64,000 nt of DNA. Source: Thermoplasmata archaeon (lineage in GTDB: Archaea > Thermoplasmatota > SW-10-69-26 > JACQPN01 > JAJPHT01). Below, piece after piece: positions 23,638 through 53,009 of this stretch. The notes below the pieces were generated by a model. That model worked only from the letters and a program-made list of their open reading frames with translations, searched no databases and was not told the DNA's origin. Where the stretch lies: contig JAXDQU010000089.1 in the NCBI GenBank assembly GCA_034667685.1, positions 21,072-85,071 on the forward strand, read 5' to 3'. The translations under genes were made by a program, and so were the position numbers. Each line of letters opens with the position of its first letter. Within the stretch, counting starts at the first letter, position 1.

Positions 23638-24717
23638 CTACGCGGGACCGGGCGCCAGCAGGCTCGGCACCTCGCCCGGTCGCGCCAGCTCCAGCAGCCA
23701 GTGGCCGATGCCCGCCAGCCCCTGCATGAGCGCGGGGTGCGCGTCGTAGAGCGCGCCGGTGGGCCAGGAGCGCCACGGCTCCCTCGCCTGATATCGTTCC
23801 AGCCCCCAGCGCGCGACGGCGCGGGCGCGCGCGAGGCCGCCGGGGTCGCCCAGCGCCTCGTCCATGACGTGCACGCACGCGGCGACACCCGCCACGCCGC
23901 AGCAGAGGTGGAACGGATCGCCGGGCGAGGCGAGCATCGCGTCGAGGCGCGCCTGAGCCTGCGCCCGCAGCGCGCGCACCTCCGGCGCGAGGCCGGGCAC
24001 GCGCGGCATGGCGAGCGCGCGGGCCAGCCCCATGCCGGGCGCGCCGTGGCACCAGCTCTCGCGCTCGCGCGGCAGGGCGTGCTCGCGGCCGAACGCCTCG
24101 CGCGCGGCGGAGGGGTCCACGAAGGAGAGCGCGTAGGCCGCGCCCGAGAGCCCGTGCGCGAAGCCCGCGACGCGCGCCTCGCCGGGTCGGAGGTCGGCCG
24201 CGAGCGTGTCGGCCTCATCCGTGCCTGCGAGGAGCGCGAGCGCGCCCGCCGTGCCGCCCACGAGGTCCCAGCCGTGCGCGCGCCGGCGCGAGGCGAGGAC
24301 CTTCGTGCGCAGCCGCCGCGCGTGGGCACTCTCGCCCACCTGGTCCGCGGCCCACGCGACGCCCAGCGTCCCCAGGTACGGCCCGAAGCGCGCCTCGCCG
24401 CCGGTCTGCGCCGCCACGAGCGTCTTCGCCTCGTCGACGTGCCAGGCATGGCGCAGCGCATGCCGGATCGCGCCGCGGGCCGCGCGGGCGTGGGCCTTGT
24501 CTCCGCTGACGCGCGCGAGGCGGGCGAGGAAGAGCGCGATGCCCGCCGTGCCGCCGTAGAGGCTCGACTCCAGCGTGTAGGCCATCGCGCCGCCGTGCGG
24601 ACCCGGCTCGCGGTGCGCGGCGATCCACGTGCACCGGTCCGCGTGCCAGACCGCCTCGCGCGCGAGCTTGTCGCCGATCGCGACGGCCTCCGCGAGCAGC
24701 GCCGCGTCCTCGCGCAT
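23638..24717 (-). CDS. lanC: Stand-alone lanthionine synthetase LanC-like cyclase (359 aa)
   Basis: GxxG repeats LYGGTAGIALFL, DLVGGTAG, GFAHGLSG (catalytic His), SWCHGAPG, LCCGVAG (Zn ligands), LMQGLAGIG. Its ATG overlaps the upstream TGA. Confidence 0.85.
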   Translation of the reverse strand: MREDAALLAEAVAIGDKLAREAVWHADRCTWIAAHREPGPHGGAMAYTLESSLYGGTAGIALFLARLARVSGDKAHARAARGAIRHALRHAWHVDEAKTLVAAQTGGEARFGPYLGTLGVAWAADQVGESAHARRLRTKVLASRRRAHGWDLVGGTAGALALLAGTDEADTLAADLRPGEARVAGFAHGLSGAAYALSFVDPSAAREAFGREHALPRERESWCHGAPGMGLARALAMPRVPGLAPEVRALRAQAQARLDAMLASPGDPFHLCCGVAGVAACVHVMDEALGDPGGLARARAVARWGLERYQAREPWRSWPTGALYDAHPALMQGLAGIGHWLLELARPGEVPSLLAPGPA

Positions 24718-25454
24718 CAGATCGTCACCTCGATCTCGGAGCGGCCGGGCGCCAGGTGCGGCGCGTCGAGCCCTTCGGCGCGGAAGCGCGCCTCCAGCGC
24801 GTCGAGCGGGTCGCGTCCGGCGCGCCAGGCCTCGTGGAGCCCTTCGGCCGCGAGGCGGCTGCGGTGCAGGCCGAAGCTCTCGCCCCGGCCCGGGTCGTCC
24901 GCCACCGCGACGCCGGGCGCGATGCGGCGGGCGAACGCGGGCGTCCCCGGGCGCAGCCACGGTTTCACGGCCTCGTGGAGCGCGCGCACGTCCAGCGCAT
25001 CGCGGGGCGCGTAGAGCACCGCGGCGTCCGCGCGCACGAACTGCGAGGGATCGTTGGCGATCTTCGCGTGGTGCGGAAGGTCGAGCTTGCGCAGCGCCCG
25101 CGCGAAGGGCAGCGCGCCCTCGCGGCAGAGGTGCCAATAGACGCGCGCGGTGCCCGGCTCCCCCGCCGCGTGCCGCCGCGCGCCGGGCATGTGGCACCAG
25201 CCCAGGTCCGGGTCCTGGCGCGGCGCGCCGCGGGCCTTCTCCAGCGCGCGGTGCAAGGCGTGGGCAAGGAGGCGCTCGCGCGGCGGCATGGCCTCGCGGA
25301 CCGGGGAGCCGCGGAGGTAGTGGCGCTCGTAGATCAGCCGGGCGGCGTCCGCGACCTCCACGTTCTCGTAGCGCTCGCCCATCCAGAGGAACGTCCGCGC
25401 GTCGGCGAACGAGCCCGCGGCGGCGAGCGGCGCGAGCGCGTCGCGCAATGTCAC
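24717..25454 (-). CDS. HopA1-family protein, probable phosphoSer/Thr lyase (LanY-like, 245 aa)
   Basis: RVYWHL, HAKIANDPSQFVRADAAVLY, PAFARRIAPGVAVADDP, ESFGLHR. GTGA overlap with the kinase. Confidence 0.8.
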   Translation of the reverse strand: MTLRDALAPLAAAGSFADARTFLWMGERYENVEVADAARLIYERHYLRGSPVREAMPPRERLLAHALHRALEKARGAPRQDPDLGWCHMPGARRHAAGEPGTARVYWHLCREGALPFARALRKLDLPHHAKIANDPSQFVRADAAVLYAPRDALDVRALHEAVKPWLRPGTPAFARRIAPGVAVADDPGRGESFGLHRSRLAAEGLHEAWRAGRDPLDALEARFRAEGLDAPHLAPGRSEIEVTI

Positions 25455-26503
25455 GCGAGCCACCCCTCCCCGAGAAGATCGCGCGCGGCTCGGGCCGGGT
25501 CGTCGTGCGCCGCGCGCGCGAGCCGCGCCGCGTCGAGCGGAAGCTTCGGGCGCGCCGGGGCGACGGGGAGCGCCTCGTAGGCGTGCACGGCGAGGTGGAG
25601 CGCCAGGTTGCGCAGCAGCGTCTCGCGCAGCGCGCGGGCCGAGTCGCGGGAGAGGCGCGCGGTCCGCCGATAGCCAAGCGCGGTCTGGGCCACGGCGGCG
25701 TGCCACGTCTGCGGTGGCTGGCGCTGCCCGTCGACGAGCCACGCGCGGACGTGCTCGCAGAGCGCGTAGCCGAGGTCCCACGCGGGGTCGCCGCGGTGCG
25801 CCAGCTCCCAGTCCACGAGGCGCGCGTTGAGCTCGCCGCGCGGGCCGGCGCCCGAGGTCAGGAGGAAGTTGTCCCAGCGCGCGTCGCCGTGCACGAGCCC
25901 GACGACCCGCTCGGGGGCGGCGGCGAAGGGCAGCCCGTGGAGCGCGTCGCGCAGCGCGGCGGCGTGCGGGTCCTCCTTCGCGCGGTGGTCCAGCGAGGTC
26001 GGGATGCGCAGCGCGGCGGGCGTCTCGCGCGGGATCGCGCGGAGCGAGCCCTCCCGCGCGGCGCGGATGCCGGCCACGCGCAGGCGCGCGAGGATGCGGC
26101 CCACGGTGAGCGACGAGGCGGGGCTGACGCCGCGCGCCTGGTGCAGCTTGCCCAGCGTCGTCGCCGGGTGCACGAGCGCGGTGGCGAGGATCGCGTCCCG
26201 CGGGTCGTGGCGCAGGAGCGTGGGCACGAAGCGGCGCATCGGGGCGAGCGCGGGCGCGCGGGCGAAGGCGCGCAGCGTGGCGGCCTCGCGCGCGACGCCG
26301 GCCGAAAGCTCGGCGTTGTCCGGCTCCATCGCCTGCTTGAGCAGGACGCCCGCGCGGCGCGGCACGAGGACCTTCACGTTGCGGTTCCGGCGCGTGTAGT
26401 CGCGGACCTCGACCCGCCCGTCGCGCGCGTCCACGACGGCGCTGGCCGGCACGAGGCGGTTGCGCACGAGCCAGGGCACCGCGCCCGCCAGCGTCAGCTC
26501 CAC
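25451..26503 (-). CDS. APH-family phosphotransferase, probable Ser/Thr kinase (LanK-like, 350 aa)
   Basis: RRNRNVKV, LLKQA, LVHGDARWDNFL (catalytic loop), LVDWELAHRGDPAWDLG. Confidence 0.85.
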   Translation of the reverse strand: MELTLAGAVPWLVRNRLVPASAVVDARDGRVEVRDYTRRNRNVKVLVPRRAGVLLKQAMEPDNAELSAGVAREAATLRAFARAPALAPMRRFVPTLLRHDPRDAILATALVHPATTLGKLHQARGVSPASSLTVGRILARLRVAGIRAAREGSLRAIPRETPAALRIPTSLDHRAKEDPHAAALRDALHGLPFAAAPERVVGLVHGDARWDNFLLTSGAGPRGELNARLVDWELAHRGDPAWDLGYALCEHVRAWLVDGQRQPPQTWHAAVAQTALGYRRTARLSRDSARALRETLLRNLALHLAVHAYEALPVAPARPKLPLDAARLARAAHDDPARAARDLLGEGWLA

Positions 26504-26576
26504 GCTGCCGCCACGAGGGCGCGCGACATGAATCTTGATGTGCTCCGCAGGTCTTGCGAGCGCGGAGGTCTGCTGG

Positions 26577-26693
26577 ATGAAGCTCACCACGCGCGACATC
26601 GAAGCCATGGAAAACAAGACGCCCCGCCCCAACGAGGCGACCCCGACGGGTTGCTACTTCGGGACGGGGTGCTTCCTGTACAGCCTGCACTGA
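26577..26693 (+). CDS. RiPP precursor A1, 38 aa: MKLTTRDIEAMENKTPRPNEATPTGCYFGTGCFLYSLH
   Basis: Translated by hand. GGAGGT RBS 7 nt upstream; homologous to A2-A4. Confidence 0.85.
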   Translation: MKLTTRDIEAMENKTPRPNEATPTGCYFGTGCFLYSLH

Positions 26694-29172: not shown

Positions 29173-29676
29173 GTGCCGACCGCCGATGCCCACGCTCCAA
29201 GCCCCGAGGACGTGCGCGATGCCGCGCAGCGCCTCTTGGCGCGCCGTCACGCGCAGCGCGCGCGCCCCACGTTCGGCGACGAGGCCGACGCCGCGCTGCT
29301 CGCGGCCCTGCGCGCGCGCCCCGACGAGGCGCAGGCGCGCGAGGCGGGCCTCCGCGTCGGGCGCGAGGTCTACGCGCGCCGCTGCTACGAGGACAACGTG
29401 CCCGGCGCCGTCGCGATCCTCTCCACGACGCTCCTGGCCTCGGGCCTGGGCTCCGTCTCCGTCGAGTCCTGGTTCCATCGCCAGGGCGTGCTCGCGTTCC
29501 GCCCGCTCGACGAGCGCGACGCGGCCGCGGCCTCCTCCTACGTCTCGGGGCTCCTCGCGGGATATCTCGGCGAGGCGCTGAATTGCCGCGCTGAGGCGCA
29601 GGCGCAGCCCGGGGCGCGCTTCGCGGTGCGCCTGCTCGAAGGGCGCGACGTCAACCACGGGAGGGCCGCCGCGTGA
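29173..29676 (+). CDS. Hypothetical protein, V4R-like
   Basis: First gene of a translationally coupled operon. AGLRVG...SGLG...YVSGLLAGYL resembles the V4R pattern. Confidence 0.55.
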   Translation: MPTADAHAPSPEDVRDAAQRLLARRHAQRARPTFGDEADAALLAALRARPDEAQAREAGLRVGREVYARRCYEDNVPGAVAILSTTLLASGLGSVSVESWFHRQGVLAFRPLDERDAAAASSYVSGLLAGYLGEALNCRAEAQAQPGARFAVRLLEGRDVNHGRAAA

Positions 29677-30047
29677 TGGACCACGCCTCGCGCGTCGACG
29701 TCGCCCTCGCCGACCTGCTCAAGCACGAGGGCCTCACCGGCGCCTCGCTGATCAGCCGCGACGGGCTCTGCGTGCGCGCCGCGGGACGCTCGGAGGTCTC
29801 GCGGGAGACCTTCAGCGCGATGAGCGCGACCCTCATGGGCGCCGCCGAGATCGCGCTGCGCGAGCTGGACAACGCGCCCGCGCGGTCCATCGTCGCGGCC
29901 ACGCCGAGCGCCTGCATCATCATCGTGGGAGCCTCGCGCGAGATGCTCCTCGTCGCCTCGGCCCGCGCGGACGTCCCGCTCGCGCCGCTCGTCGCGCGCG
30001 TCGAGGAGGCGGCGCGCGGCCTGGCCAAGATCCTCTCGGGTGCCTGA
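29676..30047 (+). CDS. Roadblock/LC7 (MglB-like) protein
   Basis: GLTGASLISRDGL...ETFSAMSATLMGAAEIALREL. Confidence 0.85.
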   Translation: MDHASRVDVALADLLKHEGLTGASLISRDGLCVRAAGRSEVSRETFSAMSATLMGAAEIALRELDNAPARSIVAATPSACIIIVGASREMLLVASARADVPLAPLVARVEEAARGLAKILSGA

Positions 30048-31225
30048 TGTCGAGCGTGGAGGCGGTGGGGGTCCCCCAGCTGGAGCGGCTCATCTGCCCC
30101 ATGCCCGAGCACAGCTCCGTCCTCTTCGTCAACGATCCGGGCGTCGAGGCCGAGGCGTTCCTCTACCAGGGCGCCTACGCGCACCTCTCCGCGGGCCGGC
30201 GCGTCGTCTACGCCGTGACCAACCGCGCGCCCGAGAGCGTGCTCGCCGCGATGTCGGCGCTGGGGCTCGACGTCTTCAGCCACAAGGAGCAGCTCATCTT
30301 CGTCGACGCGTTCGCCGCGCACATGGCGCAGCCCTCCAGCGCGCAGCACGTCGTGCAGCAGCCCTCGAACCCGCTCGACTTCGCCCGCACGCTGGAGGCC
30401 GCCGCGCGCGAGGCGCCCGACGCGATGCTCGTGGTGGACGGGCTCTCGACGCTCGTCGACCAGGCCGGCCCCGAGAAGTTCGAGGCCGCCTGGCCGCGCA
30501 TCCAGGGCGCCATGGCGCGCTTCCGCTGGTCCGAGTCGCTCTTCACGAAGTGGCCCTACGGCGAGGGCGTCATGCGCCTCCTCGACGACTTCGACGCGGT
30601 GGTCACGCTCAAGGGCGTCGAGGACCGCATCACCATCTCGCAGTACTTCCGCGTCGAGCGCGCGCGCTGGCGCCCGGACGTCGACACGAAGCCCCGCCTC
30701 TACCGCGCGCTCAAGCCCGGCGGCGTCCACGTCTTCATCCCGAAGATCGTCATCACCGGCCCCTACAACGCGGGCAAATCCTCCTTCGTGCACGCCGTCT
30801 CCGACACCGCGGTCTCGGTGGACGAGCTGGGCACGACCGTCGCGCTCGACCACGGCCGCGTCACCATGGAAGGCCTCACCGCCGACATCTTCGGCACGCC
30901 CGGCCAGTCGCGCTTCGACCCGATCCTGCGCGTCGTCGCGGGCCAGGCGCTGGGCGTCGTCGTCGTGGTCGACAGCACGAAGCCCGAGTCGTTCGCGCGC
31001 GCCGCCGAGATGATGGCGCTCACGTGGAAGCAGGGCCTCCCCGGCGTCGTCGCGGCCAACAAGCAGGACCTTCCGGGAGCGCTCTCCCCCGAGGAGATCG
31101 CGAAGACGATGACCATCCCCAAGGGCATCCGCGTCGTGCCGTGCAGCGGCCAGGACCGCGAGAGCGCGCGGCGCGTGCTGCGCGAGCTGATCGACCTCAT
31201 CCTCGCCCACGTGGTGAGCGCGTGA
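30047..31225 (+). CDS. Fusion of a degenerate KaiC/RecA-like domain and a small GTPase (MglA/Arf-like)
   Basis: The N-half has DPGVEAE in place of Walker A, plus LIFVDAF and VVDGLS. The C-half has G1 GPYNAGKSS, G2 TTVALD, G3 GTPGQ and G4 NKQD. Confidence 0.85.
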   Translation: MSSVEAVGVPQLERLICPMPEHSSVLFVNDPGVEAEAFLYQGAYAHLSAGRRVVYAVTNRAPESVLAAMSALGLDVFSHKEQLIFVDAFAAHMAQPSSAQHVVQQPSNPLDFARTLEAAAREAPDAMLVVDGLSTLVDQAGPEKFEAAWPRIQGAMARFRWSESLFTKWPYGEGVMRLLDDFDAVVTLKGVEDRITISQYFRVERARWRPDVDTKPRLYRALKPGGVHVFIPKIVITGPYNAGKSSFVHAVSDTAVSVDELGTTVALDHGRVTMEGLTADIFGTPGQSRFDPILRVVAGQALGVVVVVDSTKPESFARAAEMMALTWKQGLPGVVAANKQDLPGALSPEEIAKTMTIPKGIRVVPCSGQDRESARRVLRELIDLILAHVVSA

Positions 31226-32016
31226 TGAGCGGAGCCGGCGCCGGGCCGGGCCTCGGCCCCAGCGCGACGAGCCCGGGCGGCGCGCCCGCCCCCAAGGTCG
31301 AGACCGGCGTGCGGCGCCTCGACGACCTGCTCGAAGGCGGCGTGCCTCCGACCAGCGTCACGCTGCTGTACGGCCCGCCCTTCCTCGGGAAGGAATTGCT
31401 ATCGCGCCTCTTCCTGCTCCAGGGGCTGCGCCAGGGCGTGCCCGGCATCCTCGTCCTCACGGGGCAGGCGACCAGCGACGCGCGCGCCCAGCTCGCGCAG
31501 ATCGACCCCGCGTACCCCGGGTACGAGCGCCAGGGGCTCATCTGCTTCGTCGACACGTACAGCAAGTCGATCGGCGCGGAGGACGACTTCGCGCAGGCCG
31601 AGTACGTGGACGGCCCCGTCAACCTCAACGCGGTCAGCCTCGCGGTCAACAACGCGCAGCGCCGCATCATCGCCGAGCACGCGACGCACCGGCTCGTCTA
31701 CGACAGCGTCTCGACGACGACCACGTACACCAACGCGCAGACGACGTTCCGCTTCCTCCAGGTGCTCGTGGGCAAGGCCAAGCGCGCGGGCGCGACCACG
31801 ATGCTCCTGCTCGACCAGGGCATGCACACGGACGCCGAGGTGCAGACGTTCAAGCACCTCAGCGACGGCATGATCGAGGTGCGCGCCGAGGGCACGAGCA
31901 ACTTCCTGCAGGTGGCCGGCATCGGCGTCACGGAGAACCGCGGCTGGGTCGAGTACCGCTTCACCGAACGTTTGTTCGACGTGACAGGCTCGTTCTCGGC
32001 CGGGCGGATTCGCTGA
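31225..32016 (+). CDS. KaiC/RAD55-like ATPase, single domain
   Basis: TGVRRLDDLLEGGVP, LLYGPPFLGKE, FVDTYS, LVYDSVS, HLSDGMIE. Confidence 0.85.
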   Translation: MSGAGAGPGLGPSATSPGGAPAPKVETGVRRLDDLLEGGVPPTSVTLLYGPPFLGKELLSRLFLLQGLRQGVPGILVLTGQATSDARAQLAQIDPAYPGYERQGLICFVDTYSKSIGAEDDFAQAEYVDGPVNLNAVSLAVNNAQRRIIAEHATHRLVYDSVSTTTTYTNAQTTFRFLQVLVGKAKRAGATTMLLLDQGMHTDAEVQTFKHLSDGMIEVRAEGTSNFLQVAGIGVTENRGWVEYRFTERLFDVTGSFSAGRIR

Positions 32017-32023
32017 TTCTTCT

Positions 32024-32184
32024 GGGCAAGGGCACGGGCAAGTCCCATCCCGACGCTGTTTGCCGGCGCGCTCATTTCCCAACACCGCGCATCCGAGGCA
32101 TCCGCGGATTCCGGGATTCTCGGTGTTGGGAAGGGAGCGCCACGAAGACGAGCACGGTGGAGGAACTTGCCCTTGCCCGTGCCC
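32024..32184. repeat. Nested imperfect hairpin with GGGCAC/GGGCAA 6-nt units between convergent genes
   Basis: Outer arms gggcaagggcacgggcaagt / acttgcccttgcccgtgccc, inner arms ttcccaacaccg / cggtgttgggaa. Confidence 0.75.
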
Positions 32185-32189
32185 GCGGG

Positions 32190-33401
32190 CTACAGGAAGC
32201 CCAAGCCCAGGATCGCGATCGCGACGAGGATCGCGGAGTGCTTGAGCCCGGCCTGGAAGTTGCCCTCGCTCATCACGCCCACGACCATGCCGCTGCCCAG
32301 CGCCTGCACGAGGCCGACGCCGAAGTAGACGTAGCGGAAGTCGGTGAGCGTCATCTGGTGGCTCACCAGGAGGCCGCCGCCCGCGAGGTTGCCGCCGATC
32401 TGGCTGGTGCTGGTGAGCACGCTGGGGATCAGGAGGCCCTGGAGCGCCGCGGTGACGGCGAGGAAGACGCCGAACGCGACGTAGACGACGATGACGTAGA
32501 GGCGCATCGCGGCGCGGCGCTCGGCCTCCACGGCCTTCAGCTCGCGCGCGTCGCGGGCCGCCGCTGATAGCACGTCCTTGACGTTGCCGCCGGCCTGCGT
32601 GGCCTTGATCATGAGCGCGACGGAGCGCGTGACGAGGGGCGTGCCGACGCGCTCGGCGAACATGCGCAGCGCGTCCTGGAAGGGCGTGCCCCAGCTGACC
32701 TGGTGCGCCATGCGGCGGACCTCGTCGTTGAGGCGGCCGTAGTCGCCGCGCGCCGCGACGCGGATCGCCTGCGCCATCGTCATGCCCGCGTTGTGCGACT
32801 CGTTGAGGTCGCGCAGGAAGTCGGGGAAGCGGTCCTCGATCTGCTGGATGTTGCGGTCGCGGACGAAGCTGAAGTAGGCCGTGGGCGCGCAGGCGAGCAG
32901 GATCGCGACGCCCGAGAGCAGCGGCGCCGTCATCGGGCGCGTGGCGGTGGAGAAGGCGCGGTCGAACGCGCCGCCCCAGACGAGGAACGAGAGCCCGACC
33001 ACGACGACGGCGAGCGGGATCGTGATCAGGAGCGTCGTGATCTCGGCGGCCGCGGCGCGGTTGTCGAGGCCGAGGCTGCGCGCGCGCTCGTAGAGCCTGG
33101 GCGCGCGCGAGGCGACCAGCGCGGCCATCGCCATCGTGGTGGCGGCGCCGATGAAGAGGAGCGAGAGGTCCCAGGGCGTGTGCGCGCCGCGGCTCGGGTT
33201 CGTGAGGATGCCCACGCGCACGAGCACGACGATCGCGATCAGGAGCGCGGGGATCAGGCCCAGGAAGAGGTAGACGGTGCGCGCGGTGCCCGTGGGGCGC
33301 GTGGGCTGCGGCGCCTGCTCGACGGCCTCGCGCACGAAGGGCGGAAGCGGCTGCACGGGCAGCTCGCGATCATCGTGGTGGATCGGGGGGATCGAGGTCA
33401 A
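32190..33401 (-). CDS. Type IV pilus/T2SS-F membrane platform protein (TadC/ArlJ-like)
   Basis: IEDRFPDFLRDL...AGMTMAQAI...YGRL...SWGTPFQDAL...AGGNVKDVL...GLKH. Confidence 0.9.
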   Translation of the reverse strand: MTSIPPIHHDDRELPVQPLPPFVREAVEQAPQPTRPTGTARTVYLFLGLIPALLIAIVVLVRVGILTNPSRGAHTPWDLSLLFIGAATTMAMAALVASRAPRLYERARSLGLDNRAAAAEITTLLITIPLAVVVVGLSFLVWGGAFDRAFSTATRPMTAPLLSGVAILLACAPTAYFSFVRDRNIQQIEDRFPDFLRDLNESHNAGMTMAQAIRVAARGDYGRLNDEVRRMAHQVSWGTPFQDALRMFAERVGTPLVTRSVALMIKATQAGGNVKDVLSAAARDARELKAVEAERRAAMRLYVIVVYVAFGVFLAVTAALQGLLIPSVLTSTSQIGGNLAGGGLLVSHQMTLTDFRYVYFGVGLVQALGSGMVVGVMSEGNFQAGLKHSAILVAIAILGLGFL

Positions 33402-33404
33402 GGC

Positions 33405-34301
33405 TCACCCCTCCGGGGCCATGTTCTTGAGCACCCACGAGAACGCGCCGTGCGTGAGCGGCAGGAGCAGGAAGACGAGCAGGAAGAGGAACGTCTGCGA
33501 CGTGCCCGTGGAGCGGCCCACGACGAGCATGATGCTGAGCATGACGAGCATGAAGAGCGGGCCCGCGATGACGACCGTCACGTAGGATTCCGCGAGCACG
33601 CCGAGCCCTTCGAGGAACTCGCGCTGCACGCGGCGGTTCTCCGTCATGTACTGCTCGGCCTTGCTCGCGAAGTAGGCCTTGAGGTCGCCCCCCGAGAGGA
33701 TCGTGGTCTTGGCGCCCTGCAGGAACTCCTGGAAGCGCAGGCTGGGCGAGCGCCCGATCGCGCGGCTGATGGCGGTGACGAGGTCGATGCCGAGGAGGTC
33801 CACGTCGCGCACCATCCACGCGACCTCCTTCGCCACCTCGCCGTAGGTCGTCTCGCGCGCGAGGTCGCGCAGCAGCACGGTGGGCACGACGCCCGCGCTC
33901 GACATCGCGGCGATGAAGTTCACCGCGTAGGGGAGGTCGCTGTCGATGCGGCGGCGCCGCTCGCCCGCGCGGTAGTCCGGATAGACCTGCAGCCCGACGT
34001 AGGTGGAGCCCGCGAGCATCACGGGCAGGATGATCATGACCGCGGCGATCGCCGTGCTGGGCGGGCCCGACGCGACGGCCGTGAGCCCGAAGAGGAGGAA
34101 GACGAGCACGTAGCCGCCCACGAGCACGAGCAGCGTCGCGAGCCACGTGAGCGCGACGAACGCCTCGGGCAGCATCGCGATGTGCGCCTGCTCCAGCGAG
34201 AAGCGGAGCTTGTCGGCGCGCGCCGCGCTGCGCCGGGCCGGGGCGCCGAAGAGCGCGAGCGCGACCCGGACGAAGCCGTCGGCGTTGCTCTCACGAGGCA
34301 A
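33405..34301 (-). CDS. Second T2SS-F membrane platform protein (TadB/TadC-like)
   Basis: IDSDLPYAVNFIAAMSSAG...YGEVAKE...GIDLVTAI...SPS...SGGDL...LAESYV. TTG start with a GAGGTG RBS. Confidence 0.88.
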   Translation of the reverse strand: MPRESNADGFVRVALALFGAPARRSAARADKLRFSLEQAHIAMLPEAFVALTWLATLLVLVGGYVLVFLLFGLTAVASGPPSTAIAAVMIILPVMLAGSTYVGLQVYPDYRAGERRRRIDSDLPYAVNFIAAMSSAGVVPTVLLRDLARETTYGEVAKEVAWMVRDVDLLGIDLVTAISRAIGRSPSLRFQEFLQGAKTTILSGGDLKAYFASKAEQYMTENRRVQREFLEGLGVLAESYVTVVIAGPLFMLVMLSIMLVVGRSTGTSQTFLFLLVFLLLPLTHGAFSWVLKNMAPEG

Positions 34302-36066
34302 CCGGGGCCACCTCGAGGTCGCGCAGCGTGCGCGCGGCGTCGATCGCGTAGCCGTTGATGACGCGCGACACGCTCGCGATGTCGCGGATGCGCTTCTCCT
34401 TGAGCAGGAGCAGGATGCGGACGCGGCGGTCGAACTCGGCGCGCAGCGCGGCCTCGGCCAGGTGGCGCTCCTCCGCGACCTCGCCGAGCACGAAGGACGC
34501 GCCCGAGTAGCGGAAGCGCCCCTCGTTGCCGTCCCAGTAGAACGCGCGGTTGGTGAGCAATTCGCCCGTGCGCGGGTCGGCGCCGGTGAGCTCGACGATC
34601 TCGCGCATCTTGCGCACGCGCCCCGTGGGCAGGCGCAGGTCGGCCTGGATCGCGATGATATCAAGCGAGGCGAGCATGTTGCGCGGGATCTCGATGGGCT
34701 TCGACTCCAGGCGGTGGACGGCGCTGGGCACCGAGTCCGCGTGCATGGTGCTGAACACCGTGTGGCCCGTCGCCATCGCCTGGAAGAGCACGTACGCCTC
34801 GGCGCCGCGCACCTCGCCCAGCAGGATGTACTCGGGGCGCTGGCGCAGGCTCGCCTTGAGCAGGTCGAACATGTCGACCTCGCCCGCGCGCTTGCCTGCG
34901 TGGTCCGCGCCGCCGCCCGCGCGCGTGACGCCGGGGATCCAGTTCTCGTGGACGAGGTTCAGCTCGCGCGTGTCCTCGATGCTCACGATCTTCTTCTGCG
35001 GCGGAATGAACAGGGACAACGCATTCAGGGTTGTGGTCTTGCCCGACGCCGTGCCGCCGCAGACGAGCGCGCTGGCGCCGTGCTCGACGGCGAGCCAGAA
35101 GTACGCCATCATCTCGGGGCTCATCGTCTCGTAGATCAGGAGGTCCGTCGGCGTGAGTGGGTCGCTGCGGAACCGGCGGATGGTGAACGTGCTGCCGCGC
35201 GTCGTGACCTCGCGCGAGAGCGAGGCCTGGAGGCGCGAGCCGTCGGGGAGCGTCGCGTCCACGAGCGGATCGGCCACGCTGATGTGCTTGCCCGAGCGCT
35301 GCACGAGCTGCATGACGAAGCCGTCGAGCGCGTCGTCGTTGGGGAAGACGACGTTGGTGCGGATGCTCTCGTAGCGCCGGTGGTAGAGGAAGACGGGGAG
35401 CTTCGCGCCGTCGCAGGAGATGTCCTCGATGTTCGGGTCCTGCATGAGGACGTCCAGGCGGCCGTAGCCGAGGAAGTCGCGCTCCAGGTAGTAGGCGACG
35501 CGCGCCCGCGAGAGCGGACCCAGGTGCACCTTGTGGCGCTTGGCGAGCGCGTCGAAGCGGTCGGCCAGGTAGGCGCGCGCGCCGCGGCGGTCGAGCGCGT
35601 CGATGTCGACGTCGAGCGTGCGCAGGAAGGCGTCGCGCACGAAGTCGAACGCCTCCTGCTCCTCGGCCGTCATCTGCGGCTCGAAGACCTCGTAGCGGTA
35701 GGCGTTGGTCAGCTCGTCGTACGCGATGCGCACGTAGCTGTACGGGGGGCGGATCGGGCGCAGCTCCACGACGCGCTCGTGCGGCGCGGGGGGCGGGATC
35801 GCCGTGACCTCGCGCTCCTCGAACTGGACCTCGGGCTCGGGCTCCTCGCCGCGCAGGCGCGCCACGAAGCCGCGGAATCCCCTGGGCGCCTTGGCCGCGG
35901 GGTGAGGCGCATCGGGCACCGGCGCAAGCTCCGAGAGCGGCGTGGGCGCGGGCGCGCCGAAGAGGATGGACTCCAGCTCCCGGTCGTCGGTGGGCGCATC
36001 GCCCGGGGGCGGATCGACCTTGGGGGACGACTTGCGGAAACCCCCCGGGATCTTGGAAGCGCTCAC
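34291..36066 (-). CDS. Type IV pilus assembly ATPase (PilB/ArlI/VirB11 family)
   Basis: GYGRLDVLMQDPNIEDISCDG, GSTFTIRRF, GGTASGKTT, IEDTREL, LRQRPEYILLGEVRG, TGH, STMHA. Confidence 0.93.
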   Translation of the reverse strand: MSASKIPGGFRKSSPKVDPPPGDAPTDDRELESILFGAPAPTPLSELAPVPDAPHPAAKAPRGFRGFVARLRGEEPEPEVQFEEREVTAIPPPAPHERVVELRPIRPPYSYVRIAYDELTNAYRYEVFEPQMTAEEQEAFDFVRDAFLRTLDVDIDALDRRGARAYLADRFDALAKRHKVHLGPLSRARVAYYLERDFLGYGRLDVLMQDPNIEDISCDGAKLPVFLYHRRYESIRTNVVFPNDDALDGFVMQLVQRSGKHISVADPLVDATLPDGSRLQASLSREVTTRGSTFTIRRFRSDPLTPTDLLIYETMSPEMMAYFWLAVEHGASALVCGGTASGKTTTLNALSLFIPPQKKIVSIEDTRELNLVHENWIPGVTRAGGGADHAGKRAGEVDMFDLLKASLRQRPEYILLGEVRGAEAYVLFQAMATGHTVFSTMHADSVPSAVHRLESKPIEIPRNMLASLDIIAIQADLRLPTGRVRKMREIVELTGADPRTGELLTNRAFYWDGNEGRFRYSGASFVLGEVAEERHLAEAALRAEFDRRVRILLLLKEKRIRDIASVSRVINGYAIDAARTLRDLEVAPVAS

Positions 36067-36220
36067 GGGATCAACTCGATTCCGCGGTTTGGCGCTATAT
36101 AACCCTGGCGAAGGCGCACAGCGGCCAAACCGCCGCGGTCCGCGGGTCGGGCGGAGAAGACATTCGGCGGTCACGTTTCGATTGATATACGTGCCCCCGA
36201 CAGACCTGCCGCGTCCAGGA

Positions 36221-39200
36221 ATGCCGCGCCAAGGCCACCGTCTGCGTCATGGGCAAGCCGCCTCCGAGACCACGGGCACGATCCTGCTCCTGGCGATCGC
36301 GGTCGCGCTCGCGGGCGTCTTCGCGCTGGCGATCTTCAACCTCCCGCCGCCCCTGCCCTCCTCGCACGCGACGCTCCAGGCGTTCACGCCGCCCGCGTCC
36401 GACCAGTTGGTCATCGAGCACCGCGGCGGCCCCGCCATCCCGCTGGGCTCGCTCACCGCGGCGGTGCGCGTCAACGGCACGCTCACGCAGTTCAACGTGG
36501 GCGCCGGCATCACGAGCGGCACGTGGACCGTGCTCGCGCCCAACGGCACGGCCAAGGCCGCGGGCGACAGCTTCTCGGCGGGCGACCAGGCGATCTACAC
36601 CGCGCCCGCGCTGTGGGGCGCCGACGCGAGCGTGCAGGTCGTCAACGGCGCGACGACGGGCGGCCTGGGCGCCGCGCTGGCCCTCGCTCCAACGACCGTG
36701 CAGGCGAAGGACAATGCGAAGCCCACGTTCGTCTCGGCGCGCACGCTCACCACCACGACGATCCAGGTCAACTTCACGGAGCCCATCCGCAACCTCACGG
36801 ACCCGGCCTCCGTCGTCATCAGCCCGCTGGACTTCACCGTGCAGAACGCGGGCATCACGTACACGGTGACGGCCGTTCGCCTCTTGGCGAACGGCTCGTC
36901 CGCGGAGATGACCTTGGCGAGCGCGATGCCCACGAGCGCGACGCCCTACGTCAACGCGACCGCCTCGCCCGCGTGGACCTCCGACCTCGCGGGGAACCCG
37001 CTCAACGCCACCGCCTCGGTGGTGGCCTCGGACGGCGTGGCGCCTGGCATCACCAGCGTCGCGGCGAGCAGCGTCTCGGTCGCGGGCGCCACCATCACGT
37101 GGACCACCGACGAGCCCGCCGCCACGAGCCTCGTCGACGTGGGCCCGACGCCCGGCCTGGGCATCGTCGTCTCGGCGCCCTCGGGCGGCACGTCGCACAG
37201 CGCCACGCTCTCGACGCTCTCCGACAACCAGCTCTACGACTTCGAGGTCGTCTCGACGGACGCCAACGGCAACGCCGCGGCCTCCTCGATCCTCAGCTTC
37301 ACCACCTCGGCGTTCCCGGCCTCCACCGGCGGCGCCACCGGGTCGAACCGGCTCTCGCTCTCCTCGGGCGTCTCGCTCTCCTCGGGCGTCCTCTCGACCG
37401 CGCTCACCGTCACGCTGAAGGACCCCAACGGCACCGCCCTCAACGCGACGGGCAACACCGTGGTCAACCTCGCCACCAACAGCACGTCGGGCTCGTTCTT
37501 CTCCGACCCCACGGGCGCCACGCCCGTCACGAGCGTCACGATCCTCGCGGGCCAGAGCGCCGCGACCTTCTACTACCGCGACTACCGCGACGCGGGCACC
37601 TCGGCGCTCACCGCGGAGTCGGAGGGCGTGATCCCCGCCTCGACGCTCGCGCAGGTCTCGCTCAACAGCGGCCGCACCTTCGCCTACCACCTGACGTTCA
37701 GCGCGCTCCCCGCCATGCCCATCGCCAACGGCGCGGACGTGTCGGGCTTCACCGTCGCCCTGCGCGACGTCTTCGACCAGCCCGTCGTGCCCCCGTGGAC
37801 CATGACGGTGAACCTGAGCACGAACAGCACGGTGGGCTACTTCACCGACACGGGCGGGAGCGTCATCTCCTCCTTGTCCTTGTCGAGCAGCAGCGCCTCG
37901 TTCAAGTACCACGACGGGCGCGGCGGCGCGGCCCTCGTCATGGCGTTCGCCAACGGCACGCAGCCCGCGGCCGCGCAGGTGAGCGTCTCGGGCAGCAGCC
38001 AGGTCTTCGGCCTGCTATCAAGCGCGCAGACGTGGACCGGCCTCAACACGTACGGCGCGGGTCTGCTCAACGTCACGAACCTCGCCACGCCCAACGGCAC
38101 GCTGCTCCTGCCCAGCGGCAACGGCACGCTCATGGATCTCGGCGGCGCGCAGACCGTGACGGGCAACAAGACGTTCGCCTCGGGCACGCTGCGCGCGGCC
38201 GACCTCTACGACGCCAACGGCAAGGCGATCCTCAACCTCAGCGCGACCGCGAACGCCATCGACGGCCTGACGATCACCGACGCCGCGAGCGGCGGCACCG
38301 TGACGATCGGCGCCTCGGGCGGAGACGCCAACGTCCCGCTCAACCTGGCGAGCAAGGGAAGCGGTGCGCTCCAGCTCAACGGCCAGGCGATCGCGCTGGG
38401 CGGCTCGTTCACGACCACGGGCGCCAACGCGCTCACGTTCGCGACGACGGGCACGACCAGCGTCACACTCCCCACGAGCGGCACGCTGCTCTCCACCGCC
38501 GGCGCGGTCCCGATCCACGACCTCGTGGTGGGAAGCGGCGCCGCGACGCTCAACGTGCTCGCGCCCAGCGCCACCAGCGGCGTGCCTCTCGTGAGCCAAG
38601 GCAGCAGCGCGGACCCGACGTTCGGCGCGATCAACCTCGGCTCCGCGAGCGCGGTCACCGGCACGCTCGCGTACAGCCACCTCGCGCTCACCGGCGCGAT
38701 CCAACCCTCCGACCTCTCCGCGGCCGTCAACGGCTCGTTCCTCGTCAACGCGAGCAACAGCATCCCGACCGCGGACCTCCAGGACGCCTCCGTCACCGCC
38801 GCCAAGCTCGCGGGCTCGATCCCCTACAGCAAGCTCTCGTTGGCGGGCAGCATCCAGCCCTCGGACCTCTCGGCGGCCGTGAACGGCTCGTTCATCCTCA
38901 ACCAGAACGCGCAGGTGCTCACGGGCCACCTCGCCGCCGCCAGCGTCACGGCGGAGAAACTCAACCTCAACGCGAGCAGCATCGCGTACGGCAAGCTCGC
39001 GCTGACGGGGAACGTCGTGAACGGCGACCTCGCGGCCAACACGATCGCGTTCAGCAAGCTCGCGCGCACGGGCACGTCCGGCCAGGCGCTCCTCTCGGGC
39101 GGCGCGGGCGCGGACGCCGCCTACGGCGCGCTCAACCTCGCAGGGGGAAGCAGCATCGTGACCGGCACGCTCCCCGTGGGCAACGGCGGCACCGGCGCGA

Positions 39201-40150
39201 CCTCGTTCACGACCAACGGCGTCGTGCTGGGCGGCGCGACGCTCTCCACCACCGCGGCAGGCGCGGCGAACCAAGTCCTGCGCATCCCCTCGGGCGGCGG
39301 CGCGCCCGCGTTCGGGGCCATCGACGTGTCACAGAGCGCCGCCGTCACCGGCACGCTGGCGATCGCGAACGGCGGCACGGGCCTGACGAGCGCGGGCGGC
39401 ACGGCGAACCGCGTCCTCGTCACGACCGACGGCACCACGTGGACCGCGGGCCAGGTCAACCTCAACTCCGCCATGGTCAGCGGCAGCATCGGCCCCACCA
39501 CCGGCGGCACGGGCCAATCGACCTACACGCTGGGCGACACGCTCTACGCGAGCGCCGCGAACACGCTCGCGAAGCTCCCGGGCAACACCGCGTCCACCAA
39601 GATGTTCCTCTCGCAGACCGGCACGGGCGCGGTCAGCGCCGCGCCCTCGTGGAGCGCGCTCGCGGCCGGCGACATCCCGAGCCTCGACGCCTCCAAGATC
39701 ACGACGGGCACGTTCGCGGACGCGCGCCTTTCCAGCAACGTCGCGCTGCTCAACGCCGCCAACTCGTGGACCGCGGTGCAGACGTTCACGCTCGGCATGC
39801 GTCTCACGCCCACCGCGAGCGCCTCGATCCCCACGTGCACGGCGGGCCTGGAAGGCTCGCTCTACTACGACAGCACGCTCCACGCGCTGCGCATCTGCGG
39901 CCAAGGCTCGGCGTCCCTGCTGCTCCCCGCGTCGGACGGGACGAGGCTGATCAACCACGTCTTCCCCGCCACGGGCACCTCCGAGACCATCAGCGTCAGC
40001 CAGCCCGACACGAGCTACGGCGTCGTGTGCCAGCCGCAATACGCGGCAAGCCAGAACCCGATCATCAGCGGCAAGACCACGACGAGCTTCGTCATCACGT
40101 ATGGCAACGGTGGCCGCAGCGGCACCGCGGACTGCTTCATCTTCCGGTGA
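36221..40150 (+). CDS. Giant type IV pilin-like adhesin (1309 aa) with Ig/Fn3-like domains and tail-fibre-like repeats
   Basis: Class III-like signal (HGQA/ASETTGTILLLAIAVAL) and the archaeal pilin motif IEHRGG. Fn3-like ATITWTTDEPA. Repeats GTLxxxNGGTG and LDASKITTGTF. Confidence 0.75.
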   Translation: MPRQGHRLRHGQAASETTGTILLLAIAVALAGVFALAIFNLPPPLPSSHATLQAFTPPASDQLVIEHRGGPAIPLGSLTAAVRVNGTLTQFNVGAGITSGTWTVLAPNGTAKAAGDSFSAGDQAIYTAPALWGADASVQVVNGATTGGLGAALALAPTTVQAKDNAKPTFVSARTLTTTTIQVNFTEPIRNLTDPASVVISPLDFTVQNAGITYTVTAVRLLANGSSAEMTLASAMPTSATPYVNATASPAWTSDLAGNPLNATASVVASDGVAPGITSVAASSVSVAGATITWTTDEPAATSLVDVGPTPGLGIVVSAPSGGTSHSATLSTLSDNQLYDFEVVSTDANGNAAASSILSFTTSAFPASTGGATGSNRLSLSSGVSLSSGVLSTALTVTLKDPNGTALNATGNTVVNLATNSTSGSFFSDPTGATPVTSVTILAGQSAATFYYRDYRDAGTSALTAESEGVIPASTLAQVSLNSGRTFAYHLTFSALPAMPIANGADVSGFTVALRDVFDQPVVPPWTMTVNLSTNSTVGYFTDTGGSVISSLSLSSSSASFKYHDGRGGAALVMAFANGTQPAAAQVSVSGSSQVFGLLSSAQTWTGLNTYGAGLLNVTNLATPNGTLLLPSGNGTLMDLGGAQTVTGNKTFASGTLRAADLYDANGKAILNLSATANAIDGLTITDAASGGTVTIGASGGDANVPLNLASKGSGALQLNGQAIALGGSFTTTGANALTFATTGTTSVTLPTSGTLLSTAGAVPIHDLVVGSGAATLNVLAPSATSGVPLVSQGSSADPTFGAINLGSASAVTGTLAYSHLALTGAIQPSDLSAAVNGSFLVNASNSIPTADLQDASVTAAKLAGSIPYSKLSLAGSIQPSDLSAAVNGSFILNQNAQVLTGHLAAASVTAEKLNLNASSIAYGKLALTGNVVNGDLAANTIAFSKLARTGTSGQALLSGGAGADAAYGALNLAGGSSIVTGTLPVGNGGTGATSFTTNGVVLGGATLSTTAAGAANQVLRIPSGGGAPAFGAIDVSQSAAVTGTLAIANGGTGLTSAGGTANRVLVTTDGTTWTAGQVNLNSAMVSGSIGPTTGGTGQSTYTLGDTLYASAANTLAKLPGNTASTKMFLSQTGTGAVSAAPSWSALAAGDIPSLDASKITTGTFADARLSSNVALLNAANSWTAVQTFTLGMRLTPTASASIPTCTAGLEGSLYYDSTLHALRICGQGSASLLLPASDGTRLINHVFPATGTSETISVSQPDTSYGVVCQPQYAASQNPIISGKTTTSFVITYGNGGRSGTADCFIFR

Positions 40151-40154
40151 TATC

Positions 40155-41021
40155 ATGCGGCGCGCGAACGATCGGGCGGCGGCGGGCGTCGTGGCGGCCA
40201 TCATCATGCTGGGCGCCATCGTGGCGTTCCTGGTCTACATGAACGCGACGTGGGTCCCCGCGTGGGTCGAGTCGAAGGAGTCGAGCCACGCCGCGGACGT
40301 GGGCGACGCCATGGCGACGTGGGCCATCGACGCGGAGGACCACGCGGCGCGCGACCAGGTGGGCTCCCGGTGGAGCGTGACCGCGCCCCTGGGCGTCTCG
40401 GGGCTTCCGATGCTCGGGACGGGCGCCTCGTCGGGCGAGATCTCGCTGGCGACGACGCCGACGCTCAACGTCTCGCAGAGGAGCCTCCCAGTCCTGCTCG
40501 CGGGCGGGGGCGTGTCGCTCACCACGCACACGCTGCGCTATCCCAACCAGACGATCACGTACGCGCTGGGCGCGCTGCAGGTGGACCAGAGCGATGGCTC
40601 GTGGGTGGACCTGCGCAGCCTCGTCTCGGCCTCGCGCGCGGCGAGCGGCACGATCTCGCTCGCGATCCAGGCCGCGAACGTCACGGGGGGCCCGCAGCAG
40701 GCGGGCGGCAACGGGAACGCGCTCGTCGCGGGCACGCTCACCGGCGTCACGAACCAGACGCACGCCGCGGGCAACGTGACGATCCAGGCGCAGGGCGTCG
40801 ACGCGGGCGCGTGGCGCGCGGCGCTCAACCGGACGCTCGTGGCCTCCGGCCTGCGCGGCGAGGGCGCCTTCCGGGCCGACTGCCAGGGCTTCGTCTCGGC
40901 GAAGGACTTCTGCTACACGGCCGGCAACAACACGGCCAGCCAAGTCGAGGTCGTCCTGTACAACGTCGGGAGCGGCTGGACCACGCAGGTCGCGGCGTTC
41001 GCCACCGAGGTTCGTTCGTAG
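40155..41021 (+). CDS. Pilin-like protein (minor pilin)
   Basis: MRRANDRA/AAGVVAAIIMLGAIVAFL class III-like signal, followed by VPAWVESKESSH. Confidence 0.7.
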   Translation: MRRANDRAAAGVVAAIIMLGAIVAFLVYMNATWVPAWVESKESSHAADVGDAMATWAIDAEDHAARDQVGSRWSVTAPLGVSGLPMLGTGASSGEISLATTPTLNVSQRSLPVLLAGGGVSLTTHTLRYPNQTITYALGALQVDQSDGSWVDLRSLVSASRAASGTISLAIQAANVTGGPQQAGGNGNALVAGTLTGVTNQTHAAGNVTIQAQGVDAGAWRAALNRTLVASGLRGEGAFRADCQGFVSAKDFCYTAGNNTASQVEVVLYNVGSGWTTQVAAFATEVRS

Positions 41022-41072
41022 TTCTTGGCGAAATGCTGAAGTCCATCCATGCGCCCCTCCGCGGGCAGTCCG

Positions 41073-42200
41073 ATGCAGACCGGACCCGAACCCCACGAGG
41101 CCCTGGCCCGCCGCTCCTCGCTTCCGCGTGACGAGCCGATCGACCTGGGCTCGCTCCTGGACGACGCTCCCCACGCCGTCGTGGTGCTCGACGGATCGGG
41201 CCGCATCATGGCCGCGAACGCGCGCGCCGAGGCGCTCCTCAACGCCCCCGCGGACGTCCTGGTGGGCGCCCCGCTCGACGCGCGCCTGGCGCCCGGCTCG
41301 CTGGCCGACTTCGAGCGCGCCTTCACCGCGAGCCTGCGCCGGGGCGAGGCGCCGCCCGACCTGGAGCTCGGCCTCGCGCAGGGGCTCGTGGACGCGACGT
41401 TCCTCCCCGTGATGGACGGGCGGCGCCTCGTCGTGCTCCTCCTGCGCGACCTCACGCCGGAGCGCACGCGCCGCGACGAGGCCATGCGCGCCGAGGCCGC
41501 GCAGTACCGCAAGATGGCCGACCTGGGCAAGCTCATCGCGGGGGTCGCGCACGAGCTGCGCACGCCGCTGACCTACGTCGCCAACAACCTCGCCATCCAG
41601 CGCGCGCGCCTCGAGGACGCCTCGGGGAACGCCGACGACGCGAAGGCCATCCTCCGCGACGCGCTCGCCGCCAACCTCACCGCGCAGGAGGGCGTCAACC
41701 GGCTCGCGCACGTGCTCCAGGAGCTTCGCCCGCTCTCGCGCAACCGGCCCATGCGCCTGCGGGCCGTGGACCTCGCCGACCTCGTGCTCGACGCGGTGCA
41801 GACGTTCCGCGCGGCCGACGGCGACCGCGTCCGCGTCGCGCTCGACCTCCAGGCGACGCACCGCGTGGCGCTCGACCGCGACGACATGGCGAACGTGCTG
41901 ATCAACCTCCTCAACAACGCGGCGGACGCGATCGGCCACCAAGGCTCGATCGAGGTCAGCACGCGCAACGCGACCGTCCCGCCCGAGATCCGCATCGTGG
42001 ACCACGGCCCCGGCGTCGCGCCCGACTTCGCGCCGCAGCTCTTCGAGCCCTTCCGCACCACCAAGCCGGACGGCACCGGGCTGGGCCTCTTCATCAGCCG
42101 CCGCACCGTCGAGGCGCACGGCGGCACGCTCACCTACGAGCCCACGCCCGGCGGGGGCGCGACGTTCGTGATCCGGCTGCCTTGCAGCGAGACGACGTAG
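41073..42200 (+). CDS. Soluble PAS histidine kinase
   Basis: PAS (VVVLDGSGRIMAANARAE), LGKLIAGVAHELRTPL, NLLNNAADA, DHGPG, FEPFRTTK, GTGLGL. Confidence 0.9.
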   Translation: MQTGPEPHEALARRSSLPRDEPIDLGSLLDDAPHAVVVLDGSGRIMAANARAEALLNAPADVLVGAPLDARLAPGSLADFERAFTASLRRGEAPPDLELGLAQGLVDATFLPVMDGRRLVVLLLRDLTPERTRRDEAMRAEAAQYRKMADLGKLIAGVAHELRTPLTYVANNLAIQRARLEDASGNADDAKAILRDALAANLTAQEGVNRLAHVLQELRPLSRNRPMRLRAVDLADLVLDAVQTFRAADGDRVRVALDLQATHRVALDRDDMANVLINLLNNAADAIGHQGSIEVSTRNATVPPEIRIVDHGPGVAPDFAPQLFEPFRTTKPDGTGLGLFISRRTVEAHGGTLTYEPTPGGGATFVIRLPCSETT

Positions 42201-45180: not shown

Positions 45181-45355
45181 CAAGCCGAAAAATCAAGCAA
45201 GGCTCATACGAGGATCCCGCGCTGATTCCGCCAGATGGGATGCACCAGCGAAGCCAGGTTCAGCGTGCGGGGAGCCTTGCTCCTGCGCGAGGAACGGACG
45301 TACCAACGAGGCCATTTGGCGACCGAGACGCTGGTCGTGGAGCGCCTGCCCTGAT

Positions 45356-48135: not shown

Positions 48136-49603
<1,468 letters not shown>

Positions 49604-50089: not shown

Positions 50090-53009
<2,920 letters not shown>

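Follow-up and report, generated by a model that had tools for sequence, protein, structure and literature searches.

A four-gene archaeal cassette joining an inactivated KaiC-like domain to a small GTPase beside a type IV pilus locus: a probable filament switch

To our knowledge, almost nothing is known of how archaeal type IV pili are controlled after transcription, and small GTPases of prokaryotes have barely been studied beyond Myxococcus and Streptomyces. The KaiC-like protein ArlH reportedly binds the ATPase ArlI in a nucleotide-dependent manner. The subject of this report is a cassette of four genes, g1 to g4, in a stretch of 64,000 nucleotides (the window; contig JAXDQU010000089.1, positions 21,072 to 85,071, assembly GCA_034667685.1) from a Thermoplasmata archaeon. 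A strong association of KaiC-family ATPases with the type IV pili of archaea has been described, and Roadblock genes also occur in pilus loci (Makarova, Koonin and Albers 2016, PMC4858521); in the portion of that survey consulted, the only GTPase named alongside KaiC and Roadblock is FtsZ. Inactivated KaiC domains fused to signalling domains are known as iKaiC (Galperin et al. 2018, PMC5847659, citing Makarova et al. 2017, as excerpted). According to the accessible part of a survey of single-domain GTPases, MglA groups 2–5 carry GTPGQ in place of DxxGQ and Thr in place of the Arg finger, the coupled MglB proteins carry an Asp-Gly pair, and archaeal MglA group 4 has no conserved neighbours (Wuichet and Sogaard-Andersen 2014, PMC4316618). 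V4R has the same fold as TRAPPC3, and in the Asgard archaeon MK-D1 small GTPase genes generally do not form operons with Roadblock, longin or TRAPPC3 genes, as stated in the sections available of Tran et al. 2024 (PMC10933270).

The cassette is read here as a conserved archaeal G-protein switch on a non-catalytic KaiC-type scaffold, whose output would most likely be the adjacent type IV pilus. A probability of about 0.55 is assigned to this reading, by which the four genes are probably an on/off switch for an archaeal surface filament. Its starting point is what is directly observed, namely the gene structure, the domains, the loss of catalytic residues, the conservation of the module and the recurrent synteny with pilus genes. 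A preliminary description, made from the letters of the window, had proposed four coupled genes. The proposal holds, as the three junction sequences and the codon-position composition agree: the stop codon of each gene overlaps the start of the next because the junctions read GTGATG (29673-78, g1/g2), TGATG (30045-49, g2/g3, an overlap of one base) and GTGATG (31222-27, g3/g4), and the G+C content at third codon positions (0.88–1.00) tracks the frames of g1 to g4 exactly. In an RNA library from a root metagenome (X12), contigs 90–95% identical to parts of g1, g2, the g2/g3 junction, g3 and the neighbouring T2SSF and T2SSE genes span 29266-31123 and 32685-35852; they come from a relative and, being contigs, cannot show transcription, and the library may also contain DNA.

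The C-terminal part of g3 (residues 232–385) matches small GTPase models, TIGR00231 with 50.9 bits against a cut-off of 42.5 (E-values in Table 1). Residue counts for g3 were taken from an alignment of 30 fusion sequences (A1), and those for g4 from 35 sequences. The motifs GPYNAGKS, GTPGQ and NKQD are present and conserved, as is DPGVEAE in the N-terminal domain. The Lys of the P-loop (G1) is found in 30/30 sequences. In G2, T263 is kept in 29/30 and T264 in 30/30, Thr replacing the intrinsic Arg finger. The G3 motif is equally constrained, with G283, T284, G286 and Q287 in all 30 sequences and P285 in 28, and NKQD (G4) is kept in 28–30 of the 30. Judged by these residues, the GTPase of g3 looks fully competent. 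GTPGQ, the Thr-Thr pair and a coupled Roadblock gene with Asp-Gly are the features of MglA groups 2–5. MglA proteins are single-domain, of about 160–200 residues, whereas g3 has 392 residues and an N-terminal KaiC-like domain. Stand-alone GTPases of about 170 residues, 40–53% identical to that of g3, are found in Asgard, Bathyarchaeia, Methanosarcinales and Chloroflexi records.

A Roadblock gene had been said to precede the fusion gene, and g2 is indeed one. It scores 32.4 bits with Robl_LC7 (cut-off 23), and its best solved relatives are the Robl_LC7 proteins 7f8m (6.3e-7) and 9jue. The motif SRDG, which includes the Asp-Gly pair, is conserved in a Roadblock alignment of 30 sequences.

The N-terminal domain of g3 matches KaiC over residues 35–157 with 32.1 bits (cut-off 26.6). 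An AlphaFold2 model of g3 built with 30 homologues has a pLDDT (predicted local distance difference test) of 89.8 and a pTM (predicted template modelling score) of 0.85. Residues 1–231 of the model superimpose onto PH0284 with a Z-score of 26.0 and an r.m.s.d. (root-mean-square deviation) of 2.4 Å over 221 residues, and onto KaiC domains with Z-scores of 24–25.6. Catalytic sites were read by residue-by-residue alignment to PH0284 and KaiC, then counted over the family alignments. Where the Walker A Lys would stand in the g3 domain, 22 of the 30 sequences have Ala and 6 have Gly; at the following Ser/Thr position, Glu is found in 22/30. The catalytic Glu-Glu pair is replaced by Asn-Arg, and the Walker B Asp is kept in 30/30. 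Pfam, the motifs and the family alignment thus agree with the proposed fusion of a KaiC-like domain lacking the Walker A Lys (DPGVEAE) to an intact small GTPase.

The second KaiC-like protein, g4, had been taken for an ordinary, intact KaiC, which does not stand. In the window its Walker A motif is GPPFLGKE, and Gly-Gln stands where KaiC has the catalytic Glu-Glu, just past strand 2; relatives have Asp, Asn or Lys there, followed by a varied residue. The P-loop Lys is kept in 28 of the 35 sequences (Arg in 6, Thr in 1), the Ser/Thr position is Glu in 26/35, and the Walker B Asp is kept in 33/35. Neither g4 nor the g3 domain has the KaiC Walker A motif GxxxxGK[ST], and neither has the two RecA domains of KaiC, each being a single domain of about 230 residues. 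Both units are best read as non-catalytic because the Glu-Glu pair is replaced in each. With its P-loop Lys, g4 may still bind nucleotide. Comparison of the g4 and fusion families by hhalign (99.5% probability, E 9.8e-23, 230 columns) indicates that the g3 domain and g4 are paralogues. Profile–profile alignment also matches the conserved C-terminal tail of g4, TGSFxxGR(IR), to g3 residues ~233-244, TGPYNAGK(S), where the GTPase has its first strand and its P-loop; this suggests that g4 may descend from a duplicated fusion gene truncated just past the P-loop.

The first gene, g1, has no Pfam or NCBIfam match of its own and stays below the gathering score of V4R (PF02830). A homologue from another taxonomic family (L039:10615-11133) matches V4R at 6.5e-10, with 39.4 bits against a cut-off of 31; it is the only one of 41 aligned members to pass the model, the other 40 failing. 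These 41 are the family representatives found at E ≤0.001 among 1.84 billion proteins. The predicted model of g1 (pLDDT 92.2) resembles AxCeSD/BcsD (Z 11.6), the V4R protein MJ1460 (Z 11.1, r.m.s.d. 2.4 Å over 95 residues), the phenol-sensor domains of PoxR (Z 10.7) and MopR (both Z ~10–10.7), Bet3/TRAPPC3 (Z 9–10.3; Bet3 10.3 over 125 residues; Foldseek E 1.9e-4 for TRAPPC3) and H-NOX (Z ~9). As the model matches this V4R/PoxR/Bet3/BcsD/H-NOX fold group, the earlier term "V4R-like" is right at the level of the fold, and the L039 homologue agrees. Besides the window, 6 of 40 related loci carry a homologue of g1, and in two of these it sits between the Roadblock gene and the fusion. It is a lineage-specific accessory.

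Downstream of g4, across 173 nt, lies the convergent pilus operon of the preliminary description; on the opposite strand, it holds two T2SSF genes and one T2SSE gene. The platform protein is split, since the two T2SSF genes match the C-terminal and N-terminal halves of the ArlJ/FlaJ model. A giant pilin gene is divergent from this operon and is followed by a DUF7289 gene, which recurs beside the cassette in four other loci (L034, L036, L041 and L064). The neighbourhood thus has the components of an archaeal type IV pilus locus: T2SSE, two T2SSF and a pilin with a class III signal peptide (Pilin_N). A complete archaeal rRNA operon lies in the window (16S 48136-49603, tRNA, 23S 50085-53014, 5S), so the host is an archaeon, Thermoplasmatota-like, and the pilus is therefore archaeal and not bacterial. 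The framing of the locus in terms of Myxococcus cell polarity does not apply to such a host.

A search for the KaiC-like–small GTPase architecture, set beforehand as a check, returned a conserved family. At E ≤1e-20 the fusion is present in 71/401 sampled genomes of the phylum and in 41/162 genera, a few of the 71 matches covering the GTPase part only. More than 400 homologues of the same length carry KaiC and Arf/Ras Pfam domains. Clusters with this architecture in a protein atlas belong to Thermoplasmatota and Methanobacteriota; outside the phylum, the known members of same-length clusters with Arf/Ras and KaiC families are mostly Methanobacteriota. Forty loci from positive genomes, mostly on longer contigs, were examined up to ~10 kb on each side. 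All 40 have a fusion-length open reading frame (ORF). A g4-type gene lies directly downstream in 38, and within ~1 kb in the other two (L060 and L071), with the Roadblock gene in between. The Roadblock gene was found by tblastn in 29/40. The remaining partners vary: a PAS histidine kinase homologous to the divergent one of the window lies within 3 kb in 9/40 loci, a receiver domain takes the place of g1 in L064, receiver or receiver-kinase genes lie nearby in L037 and L055, and an extra canonical KaiC gene directly precedes the fusion in L047, L060 and L071.

Association with type IV pili in other genomes was the second check set beforehand, and the link recurs in relatives, though not in all. 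A T2SSE gene is present in 20/40 loci, including 13/22 loci with ≥5 kb on both sides. Any pilus gene was found in 21/40 loci by tblastn, and in 22/40 after the addition of L064, where Pfam detects Pilin_N and DUF7289 right after g4; the other 18 have none in the flanks examined. The link extends to 7/14 sampled families. With 6 T2SSE matches in 3.48 Mb, chance alone would put one of them within 10 kb of a given gene in about 4% of cases; the figure is rough, and genomes that are related do not count as independent. Three arrangements occur. In close relatives of the window, the pilus operon is convergent. In families f30, f50 and f4 and in one f1 genome, g4 is followed on its own strand by pilins and the ATPase. 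In families f7 and f38, the order T2SSE-T2SSF-T2SSF-Roadblock-fusion-KaiC is contiguous on one strand, with gaps of 79–162 nt. On the tree of the fusion protein, pilus adjacency is found in both deep halves; its distribution requires no fewer than 8 gains or losses, and supported branches force at least 5 of these. The association with pili is real, though it does not hold everywhere. In the genome of the window itself, there are 6 T2SSE-family and 12 KaiC-domain matches, and KaiC-like genes lie near T2SSE also on contigs C105 (true ArlH/ArlI) and C120.

The switch is pictured as follows. By homology, g2 would act on the GTPase of g3 as a platform for GTPase activation (GAP) or nucleotide exchange (GEF), as MglB acts on MglA. 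The dead KaiC domain of g3 and g4 would form a KaiC-type ring or hetero-oligomer serving as a scaffold rather than an enzyme. In the lineage of the window, input would be supplied by g1, possibly a sensor of small ligands or a co-regulator, and by the divergent PAS histidine kinase, which is likely the input partner of the cassette. Across relatives, the inputs would be lineage-specific: a V4R-fold protein, a histidine kinase or receiver domains. The most likely output is the adjacent non-archaellum pilus machine, with its FlaI-like ATPase, split FlaJ-like platform and giant pilins. The KaiC-like scaffold would probably dock onto the hexameric ATPase as ArlH does onto ArlI, and the GTP/GDP state of g3 would then gate pilus assembly, the binding steps and the direction of control being conjectural.

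Several observations weigh against this picture. No pilus gene was found in the flanks of 18/40 loci, including 9/22 with ≥5 kb on both sides, and the clade of families f10, f15, f26 and f27 has an extra canonical KaiC instead of pilus genes. In the window, the pilus genes are convergent and not co-transcribed with the cassette. In sequence, the GTPase domain resembles Arf/Arl proteins more closely than solved MglA, and no MglA is among its top 60 solved relatives. Several members of family f7 (L054, L055, L056, L067, L068 and L070) read GLPGL, GIPSY or GIPSH at G3; they have lost the catalytic Gln with the remainder of the module retained, and may be locked or GAP-dependent. The adjacent ATPases form three supported clades on a backbone that the tree does not resolve, an own-genome paralogue being nested in one of them on a long branch, so one dedicated pilus type cannot be claimed for the module. 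Nor does identity separate orthologues, at 50–53% to distant neighbours against 36–51% to paralogues of the same genome. Much of this would fit the main rival, a general-purpose, conservon-like signalling module (kinase or receiver input, Roadblock, GTPase, KaiC-like scaffold) for which the pilus is one neighbourhood or target of several. It is a possible, if doubtful, alternative. The kinases and receiver genes near the cassette, the loci lacking pilus genes, the pairing of the fusion with canonical KaiC genes in the f10/f15/f26/f27 clade and the partner ATPases without established orthology speak for it, as does the likeness of the kinase-Roadblock-small protein-GTPase layout to the actinobacterial conservon described in the consulted part of PMC4316618. 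It accounts poorly for pilus genes in 22/40 loci where chance predicts ~4%, for the one-strand continuity with T2SSE-T2SSF-T2SSF in f7 and f38 (gaps ~100 nt), and for a g1 that does not match DUF742 (CvnC).

The cassette could alternatively serve a variant archaellum, as an ArlH-like accessory of a swimming motor and not of an adhesion pilus, since the best NCBIfam models for the ATPase and the platform are FlaI and ArlJ and g4 weakly matches FlaH (PRK06067, 5.6e-7). This is very unlikely. The scores fall far under the cut-offs: the FlaI model gives 385 bits where 550 are required, FlaH 29.3 where 194 are required and ArlH (NF052589) 12.4 where 215 are required. The protein g4 is not ArlH. A bona fide archaellum locus with ArlH (227.3 bits; cut-off 215), FlaI (719; cut-off 550) and an ArlF-like gene lies on another contig of the same genome, and the locus of the window is on this account a non-archaellum type IV pilus. 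Its filament genes encode Pilin_N and DUF7289 proteins, and no archaellin family was matched among them in Pfam. It is scarcely credible that the cassette serves anti-virus defence or works as a KaiC-based timing oscillator. Pairs of P-loop NTPases do stand beside surface-structure genes in some defence islands, and KaiC homology recalls the clock; however, no PADLOC model matches any of g1 to g4, and the defence candidate was rejected. As for a clock, both KaiC-like units are single-domain and lack the catalytic glutamates, the g3 domain also lacks the P-loop Lys, and no KaiB-type family is among the Pfam matches of the window ORFs scanned. A G-protein switch acting on the adjacent pilus remains the preferred reading.

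Table 1. Features of the cassette and its surroundings, in window coordinates (aa, amino acids)
Feature	Position	Strand	Evidence
Divergent PAS-HisKA-HATPase sensor histidine kinase, 557 aa	27463..29136	-	Pfam HATPase_c 8.3e-29, HisKA 4.2e-16, PAS_9 5.3e-16
g1, V4R/TRAPPC3(Bet3)-fold protein, 167 aa	29173..29676	+	structure match; V4R match of homologue
g2, Roadblock/LC7 (MglB-like), 124 aa	29673/29676..30047	+	PF03259 8e-8
g3, whole, 392 aa	30047..31225	+	KaiC-like domain and small GTPase fusion
g3 residues 1-231, inactivated KaiC-like (iKaiC) domain	30047..30739	+	PF06745 9.6e-8; fold match
g3 residues 232-392, small GTPase, MglA group 2-5 motifs	30740..31225	+	TIGR00231 1.4e-13, Arf 2.3e-10
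g4, degenerate single-domain KaiC-like, 264 aa, paralogue of g3 N-domain	31222/31225..32016	+	PF06745 1.1e-22, DUF7504 3e-13
Long imperfect hairpin between convergent operons	32017..32189	.	minimum free energy -100.7 kcal/mol, z -6.85, 0/200 shuffles as good
T2SSF platform protein, C-terminal half of split ArlJ/FlaJ-like	32190..33401	-	PF00482 8.9e-23; covers 268-541 of the 555-position ArlJ profile
T2SSF platform protein, N-terminal half of split ArlJ/FlaJ-like	33405..34664	-	PF00482 6.9e-11; ArlJ positions 22-249 of 555
T2SSE-family FlaI-like pilus assembly ATPase	34291..36174	-	PF00437 7.9e-35; FlaI model 385.5 bits, cut-off 550
Giant 1402-aa protein, archaeal type IV pilin N-terminus	35942..40150	+	Pilin_N PF07790 1.2e-8, residues 105-179
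DUF7289 protein (archaeal pilin-locus family)	40101..41021	+	PF23960 4.6e-7

Two ORFs of the table are probably annotated too long. In the N-terminal T2SSF gene, the coding frame changes near 34220-34290 and the true start is probably near 34290; that of the giant pilin probably lies downstream of 35942. The hairpin between the convergent operons is probably a palindromic repeat element or a terminator. Contig depth in run X1 peaks at this spacer (128 against ~15), which suggests a repeated element. Two genes just past those for the pilins could encode transcriptional regulators of the locus. One specifies a second PAS histidine kinase (41049-42200, +); the product of the other (45068-47431, +), of 787 residues, ends in HVO_0163-type and MarR-type winged-helix domains in tandem. 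Further upstream, at 23638-26632 (-), a 679-residue ORF with a C-terminal LanC-like domain (4.3e-23) stands beside a 393-residue APH-type phosphotransferase (2.5e-8), a combination that may represent, in an archaeon, a lanthipeptide-synthetase-like protein split in two.

The host is a soil archaeon. The window has a G+C content of ~72%, and the assembly, which is 99% complete, comprises 124 contigs with a total of 3.48 Mb. The named relatives of g3 are metagenome-assembled genomes (MAGs) of Candidatus Thermoplasmatota. The same cassette, at 83% identity, is found in a record titled "MAG: Proteobacteria bacterium" (L001, contig JAJPHT010000012.1) with archaeal gene content, in view of which the label is probably wrong.

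The locus can be set against five described systems. The occurrence of Roadblock and KaiC genes close to archaeal pilus genes has been published before, and the fusion module is without a description found in print: a full-text search of the literature, with Makarova et al. 2017 and the supplements of PMC4858521 outside its reach, returned no account of an iKaiC-GTPase, Roadblock and KaiC-like module. As a concrete candidate for how a G protein might control a surface filament in archaea, the module is widespread, and its defined partners can be expressed and assayed.

The eukaryotic TRAPP core and Ragulator, with their Asgard relatives, likewise combine TRAPPC3/V4R, Roadblock/longin and small GTPase folds. 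Unlike the situation described for MK-D1 in the available sections of PMC10933270, the three folds are here translationally coupled in one operon. Because of this coupling, the operon names which regulator pairs with which GTPase. The locus is of interest for the cell biology of archaea and for how GTPase regulators evolved. The cassette might even encode a prokaryotic TRAPP/Ragulator-type platform, in which a Bet3-like subunit would flank a Roadblock/longin dimer holding the G protein, the whole being plugged onto the pilus ATPase by the dead KaiC domain and g4. This extension is considered unlikely. In the structural comparisons, the model of g1 is no closer to Bet3 than to BcsD or to V4R sensor domains. 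If true, it would reveal a G-protein-gated archaeal filament motor and offer a tractable non-Asgard model for the early joint work of eukaryotic GTPase-regulator folds.

The conservon CvnA-D of actinobacteria also encodes a sensor histidine kinase, a Roadblock protein, a small accessory protein and an MglA-type GTPase together. It differs in that the GTPase is here fused to an iKaiC domain and followed by a KaiC-like gene; CvnD-type proteins are ~34% identical to the GTPase domain, and CvnC (DUF742) has no Pfam match in g1 to g4 at E ≤0.1. The iKaiC hubs share the dead KaiC domain fused to a signalling domain, whereas the consulted parts of PMC4858521 and PMC5847659 name no small GTPase partner or iKaiC-GTPase fusion, for these hubs or for the KaiC-Roadblock pilus loci.

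In the ArlH (FlaH)-ArlI-ArlJ system, as here, a single-domain KaiC-like gene stands beside genes for a FlaI-type hexameric ATPase and a FlaJ-type platform. It has no GTPase or Roadblock partner; here, in turn, g4 fails the ArlH and FlaH models, the ATPase stays under the FlaI cut-off, the platform is split in two genes, and the filament genes encode pilins. MglA/MglB of Myxococcus xanthus and Thermus thermophilus resembles the cassette in placing a Ras-superfamily GTPase gene beside a Roadblock gene, and MglA groups 2–5 share the GTPGQ of G3, the Thr-Thr of G2 without an intrinsic Arg finger and the Asp-Gly pair of the Roadblock protein, as far as the accessible part of PMC4316618 describes them. 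The theme is also alike, the Myxococcus switch controlling type IV pili. The differences are the fusion of the GTPase to a dead KaiC domain, the constant presence of a second KaiC-like protein and the archaeal host. The module is a conserved, uncharacterised variation on known kinds of system, namely the MglA/MglB-type switch, the iKaiC signalling hub and the KaiC-like proteins that accompany type IV filament motors.

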